DNA of 63,480 bases, filler included, from an uncultured virus (IMG/VR IMGVR_UViG_2049941000_000426) (Duplodnaviria; Heunggongvirae; Uroviricota; Caudoviricetes). It is 6 parts of one record of this genome, joined end to end, with 100 filler letters (N's around TTAATTAATTAA, not from the genome) between each part and the next. Parts side by side here need not be neighbours in the genome. Positions count along the whole stretch, not along the records: positions 7,642 to 26,931 come from IMGVR_UViG_2049941000_000426; 5 more parts are not named here. One strand, written 5' to 3'. This document shows positions 11,235 through 62,373 of this stretch, piece after piece. The notes under the pieces are model-generated. The model was not told the DNA's origin, ran no database searches, and saw nothing but the letters and a program-made list of their open reading frames with translations. Position 1 is the stretch's first letter, and every line of letters starts with the position of its first letter. Made by a program: the position numbers and the translations under genes.

Positions 11235-11963
11235 CCAAGAAACGGCTGAAATGGGCTCTCGGGATAGGCGGGGCGGCCGCGGCCTACGGATATGGAGAAT
11301 CGGCTTTCGAGGACTCCCTGAGGGGCACGCCTTTCAACTACAAGGGGTACAAGCCAAAAGGAAAGGGCGACTACAACATCGTCGTCGCCGGCGCCGGAAG
11401 CGGGGCGCATGACCCCTACTACAAGAAGAACTACGACAAGGTTTTTGGCGGTTCCAACTACGTCATGTTCAACCCCAAGGACGAGGAGGCCATGGTCGAC
11501 TTCGTGGACAGCCTGCCGAAAGGAAGCCGTGTCCGGATATACGGACACAGCCGGGGCGGAAAGCCCGCATGGGATCTTGCGGAGTACGCCGGGGCGACCG
11601 GGAAGACGGTGGACCAACTCAACACAGTCGACATTGTCGGCGAGCCATGGAACTCCTATGTGCCGAAGAACGTGAAGACGTGGAACAACTGGCTGCTGAA
11701 ACGCAGGCCCTTCATGAACAGCAGCAAGTTCGACATGGTGAAGGACCTTGTGACTGGCGGAAGCATCGACGGGGACACGGTGGCCCGGATAGGCGGAGTC
11801 ACCGGCGGATTGCCCGGAGCGGAAAACAAATTCATAACNNNNNNNNNNNNNNNNNNNNNNNNNNNNNNNNNNNNNNNNNNNNNNNNNNNNNNNNNTGAGC
11901 CACGGGGGCTCCATTTTCGGGGTCATCGGTGGTCTTGCCGAAAAGGGTAAGGAGGGTAAATGA
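11235..11963 (+). CDS. alpha/beta-hydrolase paralog 2 (5' truncated, internal gap)
   Basis: GHSRGG, VDIVG; after the gap SHGG...EGK* ends in an ATGA overlap with 11960. Confidence 0.75.
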
Positions 11964-12781
11964 GCATACTGGATAAAAGACTGGCCTACGCTCTCAAGCA
12001 GGCCCTCGAACCGGCGGACTACAAGGGCTGGTTCGATACGACTGCTTTTAGCAAGGAGCGTCCCATGAGCCCGGTCCAGGTATGGGATCCTTCTGTTCCC
12101 ATGAAGGAGGATACCCGTTATGACAATTGGTGGGAGTTCCCGAGAAAGCTTTTCCAGAGGGGCCCGGGAACGACATCCTATGAAACATCCCGGTACAAGC
12201 CAAACGGGGTAGGTGATTATATCATCGCGTTCGGCGGAGCGGGAAGCGGAGTGAAAGGATGGTCAAATGGGGATAACCTCGCCAAGCAGTACGGAGGGGA
12301 AGGTAATATCGCGAGGTTTTCATGGAATCAGATCCCGGAGGCTGTAAAATACGCGAAGTCCCTTCCAAAGGGGTCAAGACTTTTCGTGTGGGGTCACTCC
12401 ATGGGAGGCACGGCCGCCATGCGGTTCGCAAAGGAGCTGGAGAAGCTCGGGACAGGCATCGCCGGAATGGATCTTCGGGATCCCGTTAGAATAGACGGAA
12501 GAATCGCGGCTCTCCGGGACAAGATCCTGTCTGTTCTGCCCGGGAAGGAATATCCAAGGGCCACGCCTCCCGGGAATGTCACAGTCGGGTCGACCTATTA
12601 TAATGGCGGATGGGTTCATCATCCCTCCGACCTGATCGCGCTGGCCGGGCAGCAGTACAACGCGTTCAAGGAGGCCCCCAACTGGCTTAACCTTCGAATG
12701 AAGGGATGGAAGGACCATATCGACGCTAACCGGGACGACCTTACATCGAGATATGTCAGAAGCTCCGGCGCGACGAGGTGA
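11960..12781 (+). CDS. alpha/beta-hydrolase paralog 3
   Basis: AFGGAGSG, SLPKGSRLFVWGHSMGG, RDPV, KDH. Confidence 0.8.
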   Translation: MSILDKRLAYALKQALEPADYKGWFDTTAFSKERPMSPVQVWDPSVPMKEDTRYDNWWEFPRKLFQRGPGTTSYETSRYKPNGVGDYIIAFGGAGSGVKGWSNGDNLAKQYGGEGNIARFSWNQIPEAVKYAKSLPKGSRLFVWGHSMGGTAAMRFAKELEKLGTGIAGMDLRDPVRIDGRIAALRDKILSVLPGKEYPRATPPGNVTVGSTYYNGGWVHHPSDLIALAGQQYNAFKEAPNWLNLRMKGWKDHIDANRDDLTSRYVRSSGATR

Positions 12782-12818
12782 CCCCCGGGATTTCCTATTA
12801 TTAATAAGGTAAAGAAAA
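12782..12818 (+). promoter_or_regulatory. Putative phage late-type promoter motif
   Basis: CCCCCGGGATTTCCTATTATTAATAAGGTAAAGAAAA, matches 1579..1616(-). Confidence 0.55.
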
Positions 12819-12831
12819 AAGGACATCAAAA

Positions 12832-13491
12832 ATGACCTACGAAGACATCAGGAAGATCGCCCTGGAGAACAGGGCGAAGAAGCAGGCGAGTGACATCGAC
12901 GCCAAGATCAAGCGTTCATCCGAGCTGATGGACATGCTGGTGAAGAACATGCAGGCGAAGCAGGCCAACGAACAGCTTCCCCGACCGACGACGGCCTGCC
13001 AGCGTTCACTCCGCCGTCATCTCATGGCGCAGAAGGCCGCCAGCGATCCGAGAACCCCCTTGCAGAAGGTGAAGGACCTTCTCGACGCGAAGGTGGCATC
13101 CGATCCTGCTCTCCGTGCATTGAAGATCATCGGCGAGGCCCGTGCCGCGAAGGAGGCCGCCGAGGTGAAGCAGGAGCAGGCCCGCACTTTCAAGCTGGAG
13201 GAGGCCGTCCACAAGGAAGCCCCGTTCGAGAAGCCCCTTGAAGGGCAGGAGACCAAGGATGAAGGCCGTTCCGTCACGTTCAGCGACGGCCGCACGGTGA
13301 ACTTCCCGGCCGCTCATTCCACCCCGGTGAAAAGCGCCTCTGATCTTGTGAAGTCCATTCTTGCGAAGAAGAAGGCGCAGGAGAACGCCGCGCAACCGCC
13401 GTTGGCCCCCATGTATCCTGAAGGACCTGTACAAGGGGAAACGAATCGTCCTTCGGCATACGAAGCCCTGAAGAAACTTCTTCATAAATAA
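12832..13491 (+). CDS. K-x-A-repeat protein, putative virion/head internal protein
   Basis: KQASD, KAASD, KVASD, KSASD, KEAA, KEAP repeats. Confidence 0.6.
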   Translation: MTYEDIRKIALENRAKKQASDIDAKIKRSSELMDMLVKNMQAKQANEQLPRPTTACQRSLRRHLMAQKAASDPRTPLQKVKDLLDAKVASDPALRALKIIGEARAAKEAAEVKQEQARTFKLEEAVHKEAPFEKPLEGQETKDEGRSVTFSDGRTVNFPAAHSTPVKSASDLVKSILAKKKAQENAAQPPLAPMYPEGPVQGETNRPSAYEALKKLLHK

Positions 13492-13505
13492 AAGGAACAC
13501 GAACC

Positions 13506-14021
13506 ATGACCCCGAAAGAACAACTCGCTCTTTATACGGCCGCCTACAAGGAGGCCGGTGAACTTTCCACGAAGGAAGCCGCGTCCAATCCATGGCGCGA
13601 TTCCGTGAACGCCCAGAAGAACGCCCTGCGTTATGCCCGTACGACCGGAAAGCCCGCGGTTGTCGAACCGCCCGCCCCTGTTGTGAATGGCCCGAAAGGA
13701 CGTATCGGCGACGCCTATGCCCGTGATGTCGCCGCCATTGAGTCAAAGCGCCAGTTCATCCGTGATCGTATCGCCAAGGCTCGTGCCGCTGCTGAAGCGC
13801 ACGGTGTCGCCAAGAATACCCCGACGACCCCTCCAAGAGAACCGAAGCGCATCGTGAAACAGTCACCCGACACCGCGCAGCGCAACGCCGAGTGGCTTGC
13901 CCGTCGTCAGGCCCAGAAGGCCCAGCAGGCCGCTGCCGCCAAGCAGAACGCCCGTTACGCCGCGTTCGGTCTTGGCCCCGGTCGTGCGAATACCGCCAAC
14001 ACCCAGATTGCAGGTAAATGA
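13506..14021 (+). CDS. Ala/Arg-rich protein with YKEA leader
   Basis: MTPKEQLALYTAAYKEA..KEAA; basic C-terminal part. Confidence 0.7.
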   Translation: MTPKEQLALYTAAYKEAGELSTKEAASNPWRDSVNAQKNALRYARTTGKPAVVEPPAPVVNGPKGRIGDAYARDVAAIESKRQFIRDRIAKARAAAEAHGVAKNTPTTPPREPKRIVKQSPDTAQRNAEWLARRQAQKAQQAAAAKQNARYAAFGLGPGRANTANTQIAGK

Positions 14022-15154
14022 CCGTGACAAAGGAAGAAGCCCTTTCCTTATATAAGAAGGCCTACAAGGAGGCCGCGGACGGATACCCGATGGTGTCCGT
14101 CTCCCCTTTGTCCGAGAAGATGCCAAAGCCGATGACGGACGCATTCCAGCCGTCCCTTGTCTCTTATGAGGGGAACACGAGGCCGACGGATTCGTCCAAT
14201 CTTGCGAAAAGCTCGTTCTCCGCTTCAAGGAACACCTTCGGGCCGTTCGGTAAGTCCTATCACGGCGGAACGTCTTATCCCGGGACTTACTTCACGACTC
14301 TTAGACGCGACAGGATACGCGGGATGCTATACGGGAACGACGCCAAGGCGAAGGCGGACGAGGACTGGGCGGTCGCGAACCGGTGGCGTGTCCTGATGTC
14401 ACAGGCCAAGACGGAGGCCGACCGGAGGAACCTCGAGGCAAGAAGGGCCGCCGGCCAGATCCCGCCGATTCTCATGCGTAACGCCTATAAGGGGAACGAG
14501 GTCACTTTGGACGACCGTTCCTTCCAGCGCCCCGGCGAATATGTCCAGGGGACATTCATACCGGGTGGTCGGAGAAGCATGGCCCATCCATGGGAGAACC
14601 GCTTTGTCGTGGCGGCCCCGGAGGACTGGGACATGACCCGCCAGGGAAGGGAGGAACCGGCCCATCTCATCACCCCGACCATAGCCGACAAGCAGACGGT
14701 CATGGCGGCCGTTCCCGGCGGTGAGTCCGGATCGACGGCCTACAAGAACGGCCTTGTTGGATCCTATGAACTGGAACCGGCCGAGATGACACGGATGGCG
14801 CTTCTTGCGAAAGCGGCGGCCTCCCGCCTGGGGTACGGCTCCATCCGTTCGGTGAAGGACCTCGAGACGTTTCTCAGACAACCCGAGTGGAAGGCCTGGA
14901 ACGGAGCGACGGAGCCCGTGCCGAATAGACCGGATTACCCCTATGATTCCCGCTACCCCGGGCAACTGGACATGTCCACCCAGAGCAAGTCCCTTCTGAA
15001 TGTCATCGACACCTTGAGATGGCATCTGAAGAACGAGACGGACCCGAAGAAGCTGGATCTCTATAAGCAGGAGTACAGCCGGCTTCAGATGGCCTTGGAA
15101 GACGCCGTGAACATGGCGTACAACAATAGGAACAACGGAACCCTACAGGCATAA
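14018..15154 (+). CDS. Hypothetical protein with YKEA leader
   Basis: MTVTKEEALSLYKKAYKEAA; 378 aa; ATGA coupling. Confidence 0.75.
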   Translation: MTVTKEEALSLYKKAYKEAADGYPMVSVSPLSEKMPKPMTDAFQPSLVSYEGNTRPTDSSNLAKSSFSASRNTFGPFGKSYHGGTSYPGTYFTTLRRDRIRGMLYGNDAKAKADEDWAVANRWRVLMSQAKTEADRRNLEARRAAGQIPPILMRNAYKGNEVTLDDRSFQRPGEYVQGTFIPGGRRSMAHPWENRFVVAAPEDWDMTRQGREEPAHLITPTIADKQTVMAAVPGGESGSTAYKNGLVGSYELEPAEMTRMALLAKAAASRLGYGSIRSVKDLETFLRQPEWKAWNGATEPVPNRPDYPYDSRYPGQLDMSTQSKSLLNVIDTLRWHLKNETDPKKLDLYKQEYSRLQMALEDAVNMAYNNRNNGTLQA

Positions 15155-15167
15155 AGGAGATTAGAAG

Positions 15168-15266
15168 ATGACACCCCAGGAACAGTTCAGACTCTACAAG
15201 GAGGCCTACAAGAAGAGTTCACCGGTACAGCAGCCGCCACCGAAGCAGCAACCGGCGAAGAAGTAA
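15168..15266 (+). CDS. 32-aa micro-protein consisting essentially of the YKEA leader (not in ORF track)
   Basis: AAGGAG RBS; MTPQEQFRLYKEAYKKSSPVQQPPPKQQPAKK*. Confidence 0.65.
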   Translation: MTPQEQFRLYKEAYKKSSPVQQPPPKQQPAKK

Positions 15267-15276
15267 AAGCATTTAT

Positions 15277-15318
15277 AGTAAGCGTTACAAGATCTTGTAA
15301 CGCTTACTTCTTTTTTTA
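15277..15318 (+). terminator. Perfect 32-bp palindrome with U-tract; intrinsic terminator
   Basis: AGTAAGCGTTACAAGA|TCTTGTAACGCTTACT then TCTTTTTTTT. Confidence 0.65.
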
Positions 15319-15321
15319 GCC

Positions 15322-15594
15322 ATGACACCGCAAGAGACCTTTAAGACATATACGGAAGCCTACAAGGAGGCCCGTGACTTCCAGACGGAGTACACGGCGC
15401 ATTCCATGAAGCCCTTTGTCGGCCCGAGGGAGTTCCTGTCCTTCTGGAAAAGCTTTCTAAAGCCGGCTCCGTCGGTGGGCTATGCCGACCCCGTCCCATT
15501 CGGGACAAAGCTGAAGGCTTTCTTCAGCAGGAATCCGACCGCTGTCATCAACGGAACGCCTGTTCAACCCAGTAGGACGTACGCGAAGAGATGA
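15322..15594 (+). CDS. Small protein with YKEA leader
   Basis: MTPQETFKTYTEAYKEA. Confidence 0.7.
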   Translation: MTPQETFKTYTEAYKEARDFQTEYTAHSMKPFVGPREFLSFWKSFLKPAPSVGYADPVPFGTKLKAFFSRNPTAVINGTPVQPSRTYAKR

Positions 15595-16523
15595 CACAGA
15601 GCGCCAAAGGCATAAAGGACCGTTCGAACTACGGGGACCTTCAGTCCCTGCGGACGGATATTCCCATAACGCTTGTAAGGCAGCTCCCGGAGGATAACAA
15701 AATGGAAGAGATTTGGAAAGGAATTAAAGACTATGAAGACGCTTATGAAGTCAGTAATTTAGGCAATGTTCGCAGGGCTGACACTAAGCAACCGATAAAG
15801 CCTGTTGTCTCCGGTAATGAGCGTTACCCAGTAGTCGGTTTATGGAGGAATAACAAGCACAAGGTCATACGTGTGCATAGGATCGTTGCAGAGACCTTCA
15901 TTCCAAATCCGGAAAATAAACCTTGCATCGATCATATAGACACTAATCCTTGGAATAACTGCGTGAGTAACCTTAGATGGTGCACGCATAAGGAAAATTC
16001 TTGCAACCCTCTTTCTATTGAACATAACAGGGAGGGGCAAAGAAGATATAATCAGAAACCGGGAGTAAAGGAGAAGAGAAGTATCCAGGCAAAAGAGATA
16101 TGGGAGAAACACCGAGAGGTATTTAATCGTGTTACGGACAAATTAGTTGCCTGGACTAAGAGTGAAGACGGAAGAAGAAAAATTTCTGAAGCACAAAAGG
16201 AATATTATAAAAATCCTGAAAATATAGAAAAAAATCGTCAAGCTCAGCTTAAATACGTCCGGGAGCATCCAGAAGAAATAGCTCTTAGATCGAAGGAACG
16301 AGCCGAACGAATGAAAGACCCTAAAATGAGAGAGAAAATCTTTTTAGGTTCTTTACATAGAGCTAAATCTGTGAAGTGCTTGGAGACAGGAGAGGTTTTT
16401 TTAAGTGGAAGACAAGCGGATAGAGCTTTTGGGTTATGGGACGGATCTGCAAATTGCTCGGCTACTAGAGGTATCGGAGCGGATAAGGGCAGGCTTCATT
16501 TTGTGTTTGTTGACAAAGCATGA
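15591..16523 (+). CDS. NUMOD4-HNH homing endonuclease fused behind a captured ligase N-terminus
   Basis: EIWKGIKDYEDAYEVSNLGNVR (NUMOD4), VHRIVAETF, IDHIDTNPWNNCVSNLRWCTHKEN (HNH), NUMOD1-like C-terminus; AT-rich; internal GGAGG-ATG at 15702. Confidence 0.9.
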   Translation: MTQSAKGIKDRSNYGDLQSLRTDIPITLVRQLPEDNKMEEIWKGIKDYEDAYEVSNLGNVRRADTKQPIKPVVSGNERYPVVGLWRNNKHKVIRVHRIVAETFIPNPENKPCIDHIDTNPWNNCVSNLRWCTHKENSCNPLSIEHNREGQRRYNQKPGVKEKRSIQAKEIWEKHREVFNRVTDKLVAWTKSEDGRRKISEAQKEYYKNPENIEKNRQAQLKYVREHPEEIALRSKERAERMKDPKMREKIFLGSLHRAKSVKCLETGEVFLSGRQADRAFGLWDGSANCSATRGIGADKGRLHFVFVDKA

Positions 16524-16924
16524 AAGTTATCGGAATACCAGATAAGAAAAACTATGGGGACTTACGCTCCCTTAGAACCGACATTCCAATTACCCTTGTC
16601 AGACAGGAACATAACAGTCATGTAGCAGGCCGGCACACCGATCTTCGCATGGGAACCACCGGCGGCATGTTCAGCTGGGCGCTTCCGAAGGACCTTCCAC
16701 AAGCTCCTGGAGAGAAGAAGCTCGCCATCCCGCAGCCCCTTCATGACTGGTCCTACAACGACTTCGAGGGAGTGATAGGGAAAGGCTACGGGAAAGGAAC
16801 GGTGAAACGGCTCGAGAAGAGCGACGTCATCATCCTTGAGAATTCTCCGACGCGTCTCACTTTTACCCGTGGCGACATGCGGAACCCGCCGGTCTACACG
16901 ATGTTCCCGACGAAGAACGGTAAC
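16520..16924 (+). CDS. LigD-type 3'-phosphoesterase (PE) domain; N-terminal part of a probable PE-ligase
   Basis: QEH..H.DLR..SWALPK..KKLA...H..Y..FEG.I..GYG.GTV; cut by a 10-N spacer. Confidence 0.85.
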
Positions 16925-16935
16925 NNNNNNNNNNA

Positions 16936-17308
16936 GGTCCTGCCTCTCCTTCTCCAGGATCTCGAAGATCTCGCTCCGGGACAGCTCCCGGATGAGACGT
17001 ATCCTGGAACAGGCGTATTTCCTGAAACGGTAGACCGGGTCGAACTTGTAGGCCCGGGTGCCTCCCGGCTCGATGACGAACACTCTCGTCCCAGAGCTCT
17101 CCGGGTAGTAGAAGTACACGCCGTAGAGCCGGTTGCAGTAGTGGAACCCATGCTGGCAAACCACTACCCTGTTGTCCGGGAAGGATATCGTGGGCGTGAG
17201 ATTGTAGATCTCGCCGATCTTGTATCTGAAACCCTTGTCCTCTTTCCCGGGGTAGAACACATGCGAACGCATGTTCCAGTTCAACGCCTTATAATACGTC
17301 ACCGCCAT
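16936..17308 (-). CDS. YKA...C..GFHYC-domain protein, partial
   Basis: YYKAL..FRYKIGEIY..VVCQHGFHYC..TRVFVIEP..KYACSRIRLIREL. Confidence 0.7.
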
Positions 17309-17644
17309 TTTTCCTTTATCTCCTCTGTCACTCTGTCTTTAAGCAGTTCGCGGAACGTCTTGTACCGTTCCCTGATCCATGACTCCTTGACGTCGGGGTG
17401 GTATCCCTGCCCGAAGTAGGACTTGAACTTCCGCCAGTCCTCTACGGTCCCCCACATGGAGTCCAGAATCCCCATATACGAAGAATACGTCACGTACCCC
17501 GACCGCGTTCTCAGCTCCTCTTCCAGAAAACTCAAAATCTCCGAAGGGGTCAGCTCGTTGTCGATATGGATCCCGTTCGTGCAAAATTTGCTCCCATCGT
17601 CCGACACGCGGACTTCCCCATATGCCGATACGATACAGACACGG
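17299..17644 (-). CDS. C-terminal part of the 35599-type C..GFHFC protein
   Basis: RVCIVSAYGEVRVSDDGSKFCTNGIHIDNELT; overlaps allele fragment 17951..18125. Confidence 0.55.
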
Positions 17645-18544
17645 NNNNNNNNNNNNNNNNNNNNNNNNNNNNNNNNNNNNNNNNNNNNNNNNNNNNNNNN
17701 NNNNNNNNNNCCAGGACGGAAACCTCCGCCTTGCCCTCAATGATGCCGAGGATATTCGTCAGCCTGCTGAAAACATCCTTGAAGGACTTGTCCTTCCTGA
17801 TACGGATCGCGATGGCCTCTCGGCCGTCGTCATTCATGAAAGACTCGGTCAGTTCGGCAAGATCCGCCCCGTACGTCCGTGAATACTCCTCGTTCCATAA
17901 CTCCATCGGCCAGTCGTCGGCATACCAGCCGGTGTCTGGCNNNNNNNNNNTCATCGTCCGACACGCGGACTTCCCCATATGCCGATACGATACAGACACG
18001 GGTCGTGAACGCCGCATGATACCATTGGAAGACACTTGACAGACAAGGGCAGAAATGAAATCCGGAACAGCAGACAACGGCCTTGGCTTCCCAGTAGTCT
18101 TTCCCGACCTCATAGAAATACACGGNNNNNNNNNNTTCCAGAGCTCCATCGGCCAGTCGTCGGCATACCAGCCGGTATCTGGTAGCTTTCCGGCCAGCCA
18201 GGATTTCCCGGAGGAAGGGATGAACGGGAAGCCGATGTTGAACTTCTTCGAGAACTCCAACGGCTTCGACATGCACGCATCATCCGGGTTGAACGCGAAA
18301 GGATTGTCCTCATCCATGGTCTTCCGCCCCACGTCTGTCAGGATGCGTATCATCATGGAATTGGTTCCGTCATGATGGGAACCCGCGACATAAAGGTCCC
18401 CGTTCTCGTCCTCGGACACCGTCACGTCCTGGCAGTCCTTCAGGAAATCCAGGATGCCTTTCTTGATGTCCTTCGGGCAATGAACGAAATCACGCCTTCC
18501 GTCCCACCGGCCGATCCCGCCGATCATCACAAGGNNNNNNNNNN

Positions 18545-19377
18545 GGTCCATGCCGATCGAGAAGATCATGGACGTCATGGACGAGAAGGCCTATGCGACA
18601 CCCAAGCTGGACGGCGCGGGGGCCCTTGCGACAATAGGGAAGCACGGAGTCCGTGTATTCGGGATAAGACCCGACAAGGAAGGCAATCCCATCGAGTACA
18701 CCGACCACATCGGCGGTCTAAGAGGGATCCAGACCCCGAAGGATCTGGTTGGAACCACTCTCAGAGGAGAGGTCGTGGCTGAAAGGAACGGGAAGGTCCT
18801 TCCCCCGCAAGAATTGTCCGGCTTCCTGAACAGTATCCTTGTGAAGGCGGCCGCCAAGAGAATACATGACGGCACCTACCTTCGTATGGCTCCCACGGCG
18901 ATTGTCGGACCGAACGGAGATGACTACGACCGGAGGAAGGTATCCGAGATCGTGGCCAGATTGGCGTTGCCTCAGTTCATGGACATCCCGAAGTACGACC
19001 GTGACGCCGCCATGAAGGCCATCGAGGCGATGAGGAAGGGGAAGCATCCCCTGACCAACGAGGGGCTTGTCATCCAGAGGGAAGGGCAGCGGCCGATCAA
19101 GATGAAGCTTACTGATGATTCAGATGTCGTGGTGAGGAACATCTTCCCGGCCATGACGAAGGACGGCTCAAGAAGGGCGGGTGGATTTGAATACTCTTTG
19201 CCGGGAAGTAACAGCATCGTAGGACGGGTCGGGACGGGATTCGACCATAGGCTCCTGCAGGACATGCTGGATAATCCCAATAACTATTTGGGTCGTACCG
19301 CGAGGATACGGCATTTCGGGCAATACGACAGCGGGGCCTACCGGGCGCCCGCGTTCATCTCAATGAAGGAAGACTGA
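18545..19377 (+). CDS. ATP-dependent DNA ligase (adenylation + OB domains), 5' truncated
   Basis: PKLDG (motif I), LRGEV (III), EGLVI (IV), IKMK (V), GRVGTGF OB-fold. Confidence 0.85.
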
Positions 19378-59533: not shown

Positions 59534-59633
59534 NNNNNNNNNNNNNNNNNNNNNNNNNNNNNNNNNNNNNNNNNNNNTTAATTAATTAANNNNNNNNNNN
59601 NNNNNNNNNNNNNNNNNNNNNNNNNNNNNNNNN

Positions 59634-62373
59634 TCAGACCCGGAGTTAAGACGGAACGCCATATCGGTAGCATTGTCGCTTGAGTTCGTAGTAGCTTTAT
59701 ATCCAGCCATGAAGTAAGTCGGTGTTACTCCAGAAGCATTGGATATTTTAGCTGCATTGGTAATGGCAAACGTCCTGTAAGCATATTGAGTACCGTCAGC
59801 ATTGGGCGTCCACGTCTCATTCCCCGTGAACGTGTAGCTACCTATTCTAGTTGTAATCTTACCTGTAACAGCTTCAAGTTGGTCATAGACAGAACCTGGG
59901 ATACCCTTCAGCAGCCCTGCAGTAGCTGTACCCCCATTGTAGCCATTATCACCTTGCACCTGTATGGTTGTGTTATCACTACTGACAACCTCACCAGCAT
60001 TATAAGCCGTGTAGTCGCCGTACATCCCTGTATCAGCAACAAGAGCATTCCAAGTTGTAATAGGTGTGATAAGACTTGACACACCATTATACAGCATGGT
60101 AAGGTCAACAATCATGTCAACACCACCTGTGACATGCTGTGTAGTACCATCGGTAACAACTTCTGTAGTGTTGTTGATCTTGGTTATATATGTTCTACCA
60201 GATGTAAGAGGAACATCAAAGGATGTACCATCATAACCAAGGTCTAAGGATGAGAGTGTTCTACCACCATCTGTTTGGATAGCATTGTTGTTGCCAGCTT
60301 GGAGCGAGATTTGCGCAGGAGTGGACTGGGAGGTGGTGGGGGTGGCCTTCTCGTAGTAGAGATAGACGCCAGACATGGCGGTTTTAAATGTGGTGGCGTC
60401 AGAATAAGAACTATCTTGCACATAAACATTACATCCGATATCCCAGTAAGCTCCCACAGCCATTGTTTTGTCATTGGAAGCTTCAGCAACAGCACCATTG
60501 GCTACAACAGGGTATTTAGCACAGATGGCGTTCCCTTTTCCTCCTGAACCTGTAACGGCTACGCCATCGCTTATACTTGCTTGAAATAATGTCGTTCCAT
60601 TCGCATTCCTAGTTATCCATTTCAGCGTCCCCAAGTCCACACTTGCCATCTTGTGCGTCGTCACCCCGTTTACCGCCTCGAACTCGTCCGCCGCGTTGCC
60701 GACGGCGAAAAGCTCCTGCGGTGAGGTCGCAGTCCCGCCGTCGTGGTAGGGCTCGTAGGAGGTGGCGGAGCCGAGTTCGATTTGCAAAGATTTAAAATAA
60801 GTATTATAAGTTTTGCTACCCCATCCCAACGTCACTCTTACGACTTGCTTATTTGGATTAGATGTCAAAGTATATGAACGGAATGTATCATCTCTATATG
60901 TATCAATCAATCTATCTCTTGTGTCATCGGAATACACTATTACAAGATATACTCCATTGGTTGATAATCTAGAATCCGATTTTATCTGTGCTGATAAAGA
61001 TATTTGTCCAGAAAATTGTTTTGGGAATATAATCAAATTGGTAGGGGCAGAACCTGCACCATATGAATAACTCCCATCACTTTCAAGAACTGCTCCCATA
61101 TCCAGCATTGTTTGGGGATTACACAGATTCTTCCCGCTTACCTTCACCGTCGGCTGCACCCCTTCAACAGTCCCCGTGTTGTACTCCACATACTGTGCGA
61201 AGCGCGGGTCGTAGGCGACGAGGTCGTCCCACGAGGTGATGCTGTCGATGAGGGTCTGGTCGCCGTTGAAGTACTGCGTGAGGTCAACGAGCTGAATCCA
61301 ATCTATTTGTATTGCGTCATAGTTAGCAGTACGCGTGTCAATAATACCAATGGAACTGAACGTTGCGTCAAAAGTTTTCATGACTGTGCCAGATATAATC
61401 TGCCAGTCAGTTGTCTCTGCTGTGAAGCCAACATTTTCACCACGATAACGCACGGCAACCTTGGTAGTTGCAGTCGTAGTTTTCACGCAAGCTGCTGCAA
61501 GATAAGTATGATTTGCTATTCCTTCTTTTGTCTGATATACTTGATAAGTATTTCCAGTAGACGTAAAATAACAATAGCCATCGGAGTATGTGGCCATATT
61601 GTCTATAGAGGTAACCCAGTTGCTTGAACCATCAATAAAGTCCCCATTCTGTACCATCTGGTTCACCACCACCGACCTCGGAGCCGTCATCCGCAACGCC
61701 AGAGCGTCGCCAGCGACAGCGTCCGTGACTTCCACAACGCCAGTCGAGGAGCTCCCTTCCTTCTCCACTGAAGCAGGGACAAGCTGGTTCCTCACAAGCG
61801 ACCGTCCCTTGATGTAGGTATGGTCGATGTCACCCGCTACCGAGACAGGGCTTGTCACGACTCCCTGCCCGAGCTCCTTGACGACCTTGCTGTCACCCAC
61901 AAGCTGGTTCTTCACATAGGTAGTGCCTTTCAGCAAAGTCGGATCAGCTGTGCCTTCGTCCGAGATGCTGACATCCCCACAGGCCGTGTCGAAACCGAAC
62001 TTCCTGTTGGTGGAGGGAGCCCTATCGTCCACGAGGTTGCCGGCCGTGCCGGCGTGCAGCGTGTCGTATGAGCCATTCTGAAGCGCCACATTGTCAGAAG
62101 GGATACCGCTGTCTGTCAGATTGCCGGTAGAGTCAAGTCCAGCTAGATCACCAGCTGTTGCGTTCAAAACCTTGTCGGCCTTTCCATCCGGTGAAGCCTG
62201 ACGCGCCTGCTCGGCCCAGTACTTGGCGTTGTTCGTATCCTCGTCGTCGCGCACGCCGGTCTCGCCGACAGCCCAGCTCTCGGCCAGCTTGGCCTGCGCC
62301 GCAGCGTTCTGCTCGGACTGCTCGGCGGCAGCGGCGGACGAAGCTGCTTCAGATGCGTCCTCGGCGACCTTGG
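59634..62373 (-). CDS. Tail fibre/receptor-binding protein, central part
   Basis: NAKYWAEQA, beta-rich Thr/Ser/Gly domains, IQIELGSATSYEPY-type motif, GKNLCN; truncated at a gap. Confidence 0.75.

Follow-up and report, generated by a model that had tools for sequence, protein, structure and literature searches.

To our knowledge, homing endonucleases have been thought safe within coding sequence only inside introns or inteins, their genes otherwise lying between genes or splitting a gene into parts. Here we describe a locus of an uncultured rumen phage (IMG/VR IMGVR_UViG_2049941000_000426, Caudoviricetes) in which an HNH homing endonuclease gene lies within the 5' end of a phosphoesterase-ligase gene and is followed by a second, diverged start of that gene. 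The window analyzed, 63,480 nucleotides (nt) with filler included, consists of six parts of one record joined end to end, and all positions are coordinates on this joined window. We consider it probable that the endonuclease gene and the second gene start together form a mobile cassette of ~940 nt, which originated by one-sided homing.

The closest described systems are the mORF 'gene hybrids' of fungal mitochondria, found in atp6 of Allomyces macrogynus and in atp6, atp9, cox2 and nad3 of Glomus sp. According to the passages of that report used here (PMC3630166), mORFs enter the 3' end of a gene, supply a foreign C-terminus in phase and leave the native one behind as a duplicate; the native copy is 91–98% identical to a relative and the inserted copy 64–81%, while the proteins are near-identical. 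The phage locus shares with these the endonuclease gene within a host-gene end, the in-phase foreign end, the retention of a native duplicate and the absence of splicing, and its native duplicate is likewise nearer to relatives in nucleotides than the inserted copy, the proteins being nearly equal. It differs in that the cassette replaces the 5' end rather than the 3' end, and in that its stub is fused to the endonuclease, whereas that of an mORF trails untranslated. Because the 5' end is replaced, the cassette must supply a start codon and the means of initiation, here an ATGA overlap. The enzyme is also of another kind (HNH/NUMOD4, as opposed to LAGLIDADG or GIY-YIG), and the genome is that of a rumen double-stranded DNA phage and not of a mitochondrion. 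The phage cassette works like an mORF, yet it stands outside the set described under that name.

Among phages, SegF, SegG and MobE of T4 are free-standing endonucleases with intronless homing (PMC2988022, in the sections used here and below). The rumen phage locus resembles them in having an HNH endonuclease without intron or intein, in its presence/absence polymorphism among close relatives and in co-conversion of flanks from the donor, but they are sited between genes with no duplicated gene end, whereas here the endonuclease lies within coding sequence and brings a substitute start (PMC2988022). The same source describes mobE in nrdA of Aeromonas phage Aeh1 and mobA at T4 gene 60/39, which likewise place an HNH enzyme in a critical region of an enzyme gene without splicing; in those cases the host gene is split into two polypeptides that reassemble, whereas the rumen phage has a complete downstream copy and a redundant upstream piece. 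T4 introns are an established case of homing that is one-sided and completed by illegitimate repair at microhomologies (PMC2988022). For the td intron the one-sided repair was shown experimentally, as far as the part cited goes, whereas for the rumen phage cassette only the layout points to it. Repeats inside endonuclease genes have also been described, in the part of PMC10448857 consulted.

The enzyme itself resembles I-HmuI, a nicking endonuclease of Bacillus phage SPO1, in its N-terminal module of NUMOD4 and HNH_3. I-HmuI sits in a group I intron of the DNA polymerase gene, whereas no intron is present at the phage cassette. No phage report of an endonuclease accompanied by a duplicated gene end was found in the literature covered, which left subscription journals outside, and the string 'duplicat' occurs 0 times in the review PMC2988022. 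Known from fungal mitochondria, the layout has apparently gone undescribed in phages.

Results

The host gene and its duplicated start

The host gene encodes a LigD-type 3'-phosphoesterase joined to an ATP-dependent DNA ligase, 434 amino acids (aa) in length. The gene body matched PF13298 with 52.6 bits (Pfam), and the phosphoesterase part matched 3p4h (PDB, E value 3.6e-15) in an alignment that opens at V27-R-Q-E-H, so that the insert immediately precedes the first motif conserved in the phosphoesterase core. The ligase part matched PHROG 114, ATP-dependent DNA ligase (E value 8.9e-14), contains the KLDG motif (KxDG) and is matched weakly by the Chlorella virus ligase (E value 0.007). In the scaffold the gene is interrupted, the product of 18547–19377 being 74% identical to the corresponding protein of L001, which together with L002 represents endonuclease-free alleles of the 434-aa gene. 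Record P0121 contains the gene uninterrupted at 434 aa and agrees with the window at 100% over the first 135 aa and at 275/276 positions over the remainder; since it is continuous, the ~1.6 kb between 16925 and 18547 is a scaffolding problem and not part of the gene.

The open reading frame (ORF) 15591–16523, of 310 aa, begins MTQSAKGIKDRSNYGDLQSLRTDIPITLVRQ, and the ORF from 16520 onward begins MKVIGIPDKKNYGDLRSLRTDIPITLVRQEH. The first 31 residues of the former recur 929 nt downstream, at the start of the latter, and over the 19 codons from N to Q both copies agree at 18 of 19 residues and at 42 of 57 nucleotides. By tblastn both matched the N-terminus of the 434-aa L001 protein, at 15591–15686 (E value 1.7e-13) and at 16514–16924 (E value 1.6e-56), so the duplication is not a chance resemblance. 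Both the shared N-terminus and the AT-richness of the endonuclease had been claimed in an earlier note on this DNA, and both stand: GC content is 0.54–0.59 on the flanks and 0.33–0.49 over ~15690–16600, which makes this stretch the second-largest low-GC island in the window (300-nt windows; mean GC 0.547, standard deviation 0.050).

Boundaries of the insert

The GC content of third codon positions (GC3), taken in ten-codon windows, is 0.3–0.6 for windows starting at 16520–16619 and 0.7–0.9 from 16628. As the rise comes only at 16628, the low-GC DNA includes the second gene start and a few codons past the Q-EH point. On the left, a 200-nt contig from a third study (X6) spans 15535–15734 gaplessly with 5 differences and covers the junction; at 15686 and 15688 it agrees with the empty allele, and homology to empty alleles therefore ends after 15688, the second letter of codon 33. 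The right boundary of the foreign tract falls between 16628 and 16639. The insert is 15689 to ~16630, ~940 nt replacing ~30 native letters. Stretches left uncovered in runs X5 and X6 were given no weight as absence. The earlier placing of the endonuclease at Q-EH is correct in that the insert lies just before the phosphoesterase-core motif, but it has to be revised in its details, the left junction following 15688 and the foreign tract running past Q-EH to ~16628–16638.

The endonuclease

At its N-terminus the endonuclease contains NUMOD4 (PF07463, 36.2 bits against a Pfam cut-off of 23.4), followed by HNH_3 (PF13392, 39.6 bits against a cut-off of 24.8) at residues 94–137 of the 310-aa ORF. 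Residues 5–105, counted from the Met at 15702, matched I-HmuI in the PDB (1u3e, E value 7e-15), and the protein also matched PHROG 59/959. Its C-terminal 170 residues had no Pfam family above the cut-off and no solved relative in the PDB search. The 273-aa ORF is unbroken, and D77, H78, N85, N86, N90, E98 and N99, which we take to be the catalytic residues, are invariant in all four homologues of 59–90% identity. Full-length relatives were few, amounting to only three of 677 matches: P0001 (90%), P0002 (65%) and P0003 (60%). In addition, P0143 is the endonuclease of the window with an altered, shortened C-terminus (249 aa, a frameshift form), and is a decaying copy.

Matches outside these relatives were confined to parts of the gene or protein. 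Among INPHARED phages, likeness to the locus was limited to the first ~65–80 nt of other HNH genes (9 records), and tblastn with the phosphoesterase part gave no match. A single-sequence scan of IMG/VR found no full-length relative of the endonuclease, only one locus with a 16-residue match; an alignment-based scan of IMG/VR kept 80 loci, nearly all with the N-terminal nuclease module only, the longest covering residues 1–209 (one locus). A scan of JGI metagenomes gave 8 loci, none with the endonuclease. As a separate observation, the first 37 nt of the endonuclease gene (15702–15738) match many otherwise unrelated HNH genes in rumen runs, with loose ends on both sides, and the 5' end of the gene also matches records of crAss-like, Lak and Enterococcus phages; the 5' end of this family is strongly conserved.

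A native stub and a foreign start

The stub at 15591–15688 has a GC content at the native level and is close to endonuclease-free relatives. It is 90.6% identical to aa 1–32 of the L001 protein, agrees with endonuclease-free contig L104 at 28 of 31 residues and 75 of 93 nucleotides, with the X5 contig at 57 of 59 nucleotides, and with P0126 at 30 of 31 residues. The substitute start agrees with L104 at 55 of 87 nucleotides, is two codons shorter and begins MK, a type present in 4 of 13 close family proteins (P0121–P0133). The displaced native terminus beside the insert is nearer to relatives at the nucleotide level than the inserted copy. The body of P0121 is 92–93% identical to the endonuclease-free, canonical-start P0123 and P0124 and 72–75% identical to the MK alleles P0127 and P0128.

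The two copies had previously been described as synonymously recoded. They do differ at the nucleotide level, but not in any special way: when the two window copies, L104 and L001 are compared with one another over these 19 codons, each of the six pairs is identical at 41–45 of 57 nucleotides (72–79%). This equal divergence indicates that the 'recoding' is ordinary lineage divergence under purifying selection. Judged by its composition and similarities, the substitute start is a horizontally acquired piece of a diverged allele which arrived with the endonuclease and was not purpose-made.

Endonuclease-free alleles

An empty site with conserved synteny was found in L104, where the upstream gene is ATGA-coupled to an uninterrupted gene beginning MTQPAKG...LVRQRH. 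A 225-nt contig from another study (X5) joins 15627–15685 (2/59 differences) to 16639–16767 (17/129) with 30 other letters between them, and is likewise an endonuclease-free allele. The site is thus polymorphic for presence and absence of the insert, being empty in L104, L001/L002, X5 and P0123/P0124. Among the 13 close family proteins, eight start MTQ.AKG, one MPISAKG and four MK. Endonuclease-free starts occur in nine protein clusters, and that of P0125 reads MTQSAK...LVRQEH, which is the continuous N-terminus that had been predicted for alleles without the HNH gene.

P0122 and P0130 have full-length starts like those of endonuclease-free alleles (MPISAKG in the one, MTQQAKG in the other) together with the HNSHVAG motif of the substitute. 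It is conceivable that they are products of recombination between stub and substitute that deleted the endonuclease. Three further proteins show unusual 5' ends. In P0145, which belongs to the P0127 cluster of ligases, the call begins only at a Met immediately beyond the right boundary, pointing to a disrupted 5' end, and the MK-type ligases P0127 and P0146 have a 15-residue in-frame upstream extension ending in T-H-M. T-H-M also links a 7-residue stub to the endonuclease in P0003, and may be a shared junction or the trace of a lost endonuclease.

Exchange of the gene start

The records P0147 (canonical start) and P0148 (MK start) fall in one 90% cluster. They differ at 14 of their first 43 columns against 3 of the other 392 (Fisher p 5e-13), with the last N-terminal difference just before DLR; the equivalent contrast in the lineage of the window is 14/43 against 27–29/393. 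The rate ratio was 0.4–2.7 in 45 endonuclease-free control pairs, ~42 in P0147/P0148 and 4.4–4.7 in the lineage of the window. The right boundary coincides, just before DLR, in the window and in P0147/P0148. Columns 32–43 differ at 1–8 of 12 positions in every control pair, close ones included, and the stretch between the invariant LVRQ and DLR (codons 30–41) is hypervariable. Endonuclease P0002 and the MK-type ligase P0148 both come from Logan contigs of 9899 nt, and endonuclease P0003 and the MK-type ligase P0133 each lie on a single ENA contig of 7140 nt.

Translation signals

A GGAGG motif lies at 15689–15693, before the ATG at 15702, and the endonuclease stop (16521–16523) overlaps the ATG at 16520 as ATGA. 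The RNA around the ATG at 15702 is unusually open (z +2.09), with 198 of 200 shuffles folding at least as well. The folds at the other two starts showed nothing notable (z −0.18 and +0.66), and no hairpin masking the ribosome site of the endonuclease was seen in the folds. Upstream of the ATG at 16520 there is no Shine-Dalgarno-like motif, and translation of the ligase would therefore probably require re-initiation at the ATGA. None of the sequencing runs listed as containing the stretch is recorded as an RNA run. The endonuclease genes P0001, P0002 and P0142 (from the window's own Logan contig) are called from the internal Met at 273 aa, and P0003 has the first 7 residues of the ligase, then two residues, then its own endonuclease Met. 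These results agree with the earlier note on the frame shared with the upstream copy, the GGAGG and the ATGA coupling to a complete substitute start. They do not bear out its view that the N-terminus is captured by the endonuclease, since there is only an open frame, and in the three full-length relatives and the Logan contig of the window itself the gene is called from the internal ATG or close to it.

Features of the locus and its neighborhood

Positions of the cassette and of the features around it are given in Table 1.

Table 1. Features at the cassette locus, in window coordinates.
Feature	Position	Strand	Evidence or remark
90-aa gene, function unassigned	15322..15594	+	Stop overlaps native ligase start as ATGA; context, left-hand homology
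Native 5' stub of phosphoesterase-ligase gene, codons 1–32 plus 2 letters	15591..15688	+	In frame with endonuclease ORF
Insert leader, 13 nt, GGAGG 8 nt before ATG 15702	15689..15701	+	Sequence
Homing endonuclease gene, 273 aa, NUMOD4 + HNH_3, I-HmuI-like	15702..16523	+	Pfam, PDB
Foreign substitute ligase start, codons 1 to ~37–40, MKVIG...LVRQEHNSHVA	16520..16630	+	ATGA-coupled
Native gene body, phosphoesterase domain PF13298	16631..16924	+	Up to scaffold gap
Five N runs and minus-strand ORFs, outside the element	16925..18546	.	Gene interruption in this scaffold only
Remainder of ligase gene, residues 159–434, ATP-dependent ligase part with KLDG	18547..19377	+	P0121, L001, PHROG 114

One stretch is repeated on either side of gaps within the scaffold gap region, 16925–18546, and run X3 has two variants at 16738–16900; the cause of this broken, mis-joined assembly is probably strain heterogeneity. 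The 90-aa upstream gene has a 91-aa homologue at the equivalent position in L104 and no Pfam or PHROG match. Three consecutive plus-strand ORFs upstream of the ligase gene (13506–14021, 14018–15154 and 15322–15594) begin with a common leader, M-T-x(2-4)-E-x(3-4)-Y-x2-A-Y-K-E-A, and none of the three has a Pfam or PHROG match. The leader occurs in L104 homologues as well (520–756 and 816–1091), one of them with K-Q-A replacing K-E-A, and we take it to be reminiscent of the capsid-targeting sequences of T4 internal proteins. Elsewhere, at 59851–61700 on the minus strand, the window has its largest low-GC island (GC down to 0.35), which lies in the distal part of an 890-aa, tail-fibre-like minus-strand ORF (59582–62254), possibly an acquired host-recognition module.

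Discussion

The explanation that we favor, and consider probable, is that a mobile cassette of ~940 nt, comprising an I-HmuI-like HNH gene and a diverged ligase start, was inserted into the phosphoesterase-ligase gene by one-sided homing. The endonuclease would nick or cut endonuclease-free alleles in or near codons 30–41, between LVRQ and DLR; repair would then copy the endonuclease-bearing genome, and homology just beyond the break would resolve the exchange on the right. The left join would, at the founding of the cassette, have been made without homology, by illegitimate repair, 13 nt before the endonuclease ATG, leaving the native start stranded. Afterwards the cassette would be flanked by perfect homology, the stub on one side and the native body on the other, so that it could home like an intron with no need of splicing. 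The gene remains whole because the ATG of the cassette, overlapping the endonuclease stop, opens a complete hybrid frame of 434 aa, while the native first 32 codons remain as an upstream stub that is in frame with the endonuclease apparently by chance. Most likely, the endonuclease would be translated from its own GGAGG and ATG, and the ligase by re-initiation at the ATGA overlap.

Several points weigh against this explanation. The target site of the endonuclease is a prediction, as is any protection of both resident copies from cleavage, and the 'illegitimate' left join is read from the layout and not from a comparison of donor with recipient. The adjacency of endonuclease and ligase in P0001, P0002/P0148 and P0003/P0133 is read from the equal size and source of their contigs. 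The first 43 residues show 5–15 differences across the 45 endonuclease-free pairs; as N-termini are variable even where there is no endonuclease, the mosaic signal in the lineage of the window is moderate (4.4–4.7 against a control maximum of 2.7). The X6 contig at the left junction is short (200 nt) and has a depth of 3.1. Finally, the two left junctions that are visible, those of the window and P0003, are both in frame and the former recurs in another study, which a maintained arrangement would fit at least equally well. With regard to immunity, the earlier note had ascribed it to the recoding of the copy; cleavage immunity, if real, would more likely rest on the hypervariable codons 30–41 than on silent changes.

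A bolder form of the mobile cassette is put forward only tentatively. It would be a self-sufficient, intron-like element that homes precisely into the catalytic-core codons of a DNA-repair gene, the stub serving both as its left homology arm and as a source of ribosomes, first through the in-frame fusion and then by an ATGA relay to the rebuilt gene. An arms race of endonuclease and target would maintain the hypervariability of codons 30–41, and excision between stub and substitute would leave immune alleles without the endonuclease behind, of which P0122 and P0130 may be examples.

It is also possible, though in our judgment unlikely, that the in-frame capture is a selected design, in which a 310-aa fusion is made from the host start, the stub is functional, and ribosomes are relayed to the rebuilt gene at the ATGA. 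The frame is indeed open from 15591 through the endonuclease, and it stays open, without gaps, with the two changed letters of X6; native ATGA coupling with the upstream gene is retained; and in P0003 the 7 ligase residues stand only 2 residues before the endonuclease Met, with hardly any space for a ribosome site of its own. The ATG at 16520, lacking a Shine-Dalgarno-like motif, must rely on upstream translation for expression of the rebuilt gene. Against this, two junctions would both be in frame by chance about 1 time in 9, the calls of P0001, P0002 and P0142 start at the internal Met, and the good GGAGG 8 nt before ATG 15702 lies in RNA that is less structured than 198 of 200 shuffles. A search with residues 1–45 of the fusion returned no second fused form, its 5 matches among 7 candidates all being plain ligase genes.

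Ordinary recombination between lineages could have placed a free-standing endonuclease here, with its true target elsewhere, such as the gene start region or the upstream gene, and with codon 33 incidental. We consider this improbable. The left junction of P0003 is at codon 7 and not at codon 33, and free-standing phage endonucleases often cut away from their own gene (PMC2988022, in the part cited). However, the right boundary is the same, just before DLR, in the window and P0147/P0148, P0145 also begins there, and the left and right junctions of the window are only ~30 native letters apart, as expected if they flank one break.

Three further explanations carry very little weight, the first of them slightly more than the others. 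An assembly chimera of two co-existing strains might be suspected in a gappy metagenome scaffold with 86 N runs in the window and strain variants at 16738–16900. However, the locus had been noted to be free of N gaps, and no N run lies in 11896–16924; for the sample from which the record probably derives, separate Logan assemblies of two runs cover 15300–16912 (0 differences) and 15300–16767 (2 differences), each spanning both junctions. The left junction also recurs in a contig from another study, and exact matches between the two copies are too short to have misled an assembler.

HNH endonucleases of the I-HmuI type are often intron-borne, as 1u3e is, and joining 15683 to 16607 would keep the frame, so that a spliced group I intron or an intein carrying the endonuclease might be supposed. 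This seems most improbable: no Rfam family was found at E<=1 on either strand of 14500–17600, the endonuclease is preceded by just 13 non-coding letters and followed by none, a full second start of the gene, ATG included, lies within the insert, and the endonuclease has its own stop, with NUMOD4 and HNH_3 but no Hint or intein domain in Pfam. The absence of an evident intron or intein, as originally reported, is upheld. The chimera, the group I intron and the intein were accordingly rejected on the Logan contigs, the Rfam result, the 13 non-coding letters, the second start and the endonuclease's own stop.

A local tandem duplication of the gene's 5' end, followed by divergence and insertion of the endonuclease between the copies, would account for the two direct copies that flank it, but is equally improbable, as the GC3 of the downstream copy matches that of the endonuclease and not that of the phage, this copy is shorter by two codons and begins MK like those of other lineages, and the stub nearly equals the empty allele (57/59) while the copies differ at 15 of 57 letters.

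If the mobile cassette is accepted, it would represent a fourth route for a homing endonuclease into coding sequence in a phage, in which the endonuclease travels with a spare gene start. The evidence is that of natural history and is unusually good, consisting of empty, filled and decaying states, three diverged endonuclease lineages linked to one gene, and a sharply bounded tract of exchange. The cassette offers a compact natural design that combines a nuclease with a substitute gene end, and a defined target region in which to study how specific an I-HmuI-like enzyme is. It also carries a warning for annotation, in that orphan 5' stubs of this kind are not genes. For phage genomes more generally, such cassettes would explain one origin of mosaic gene ends and of orphan 5' stubs.

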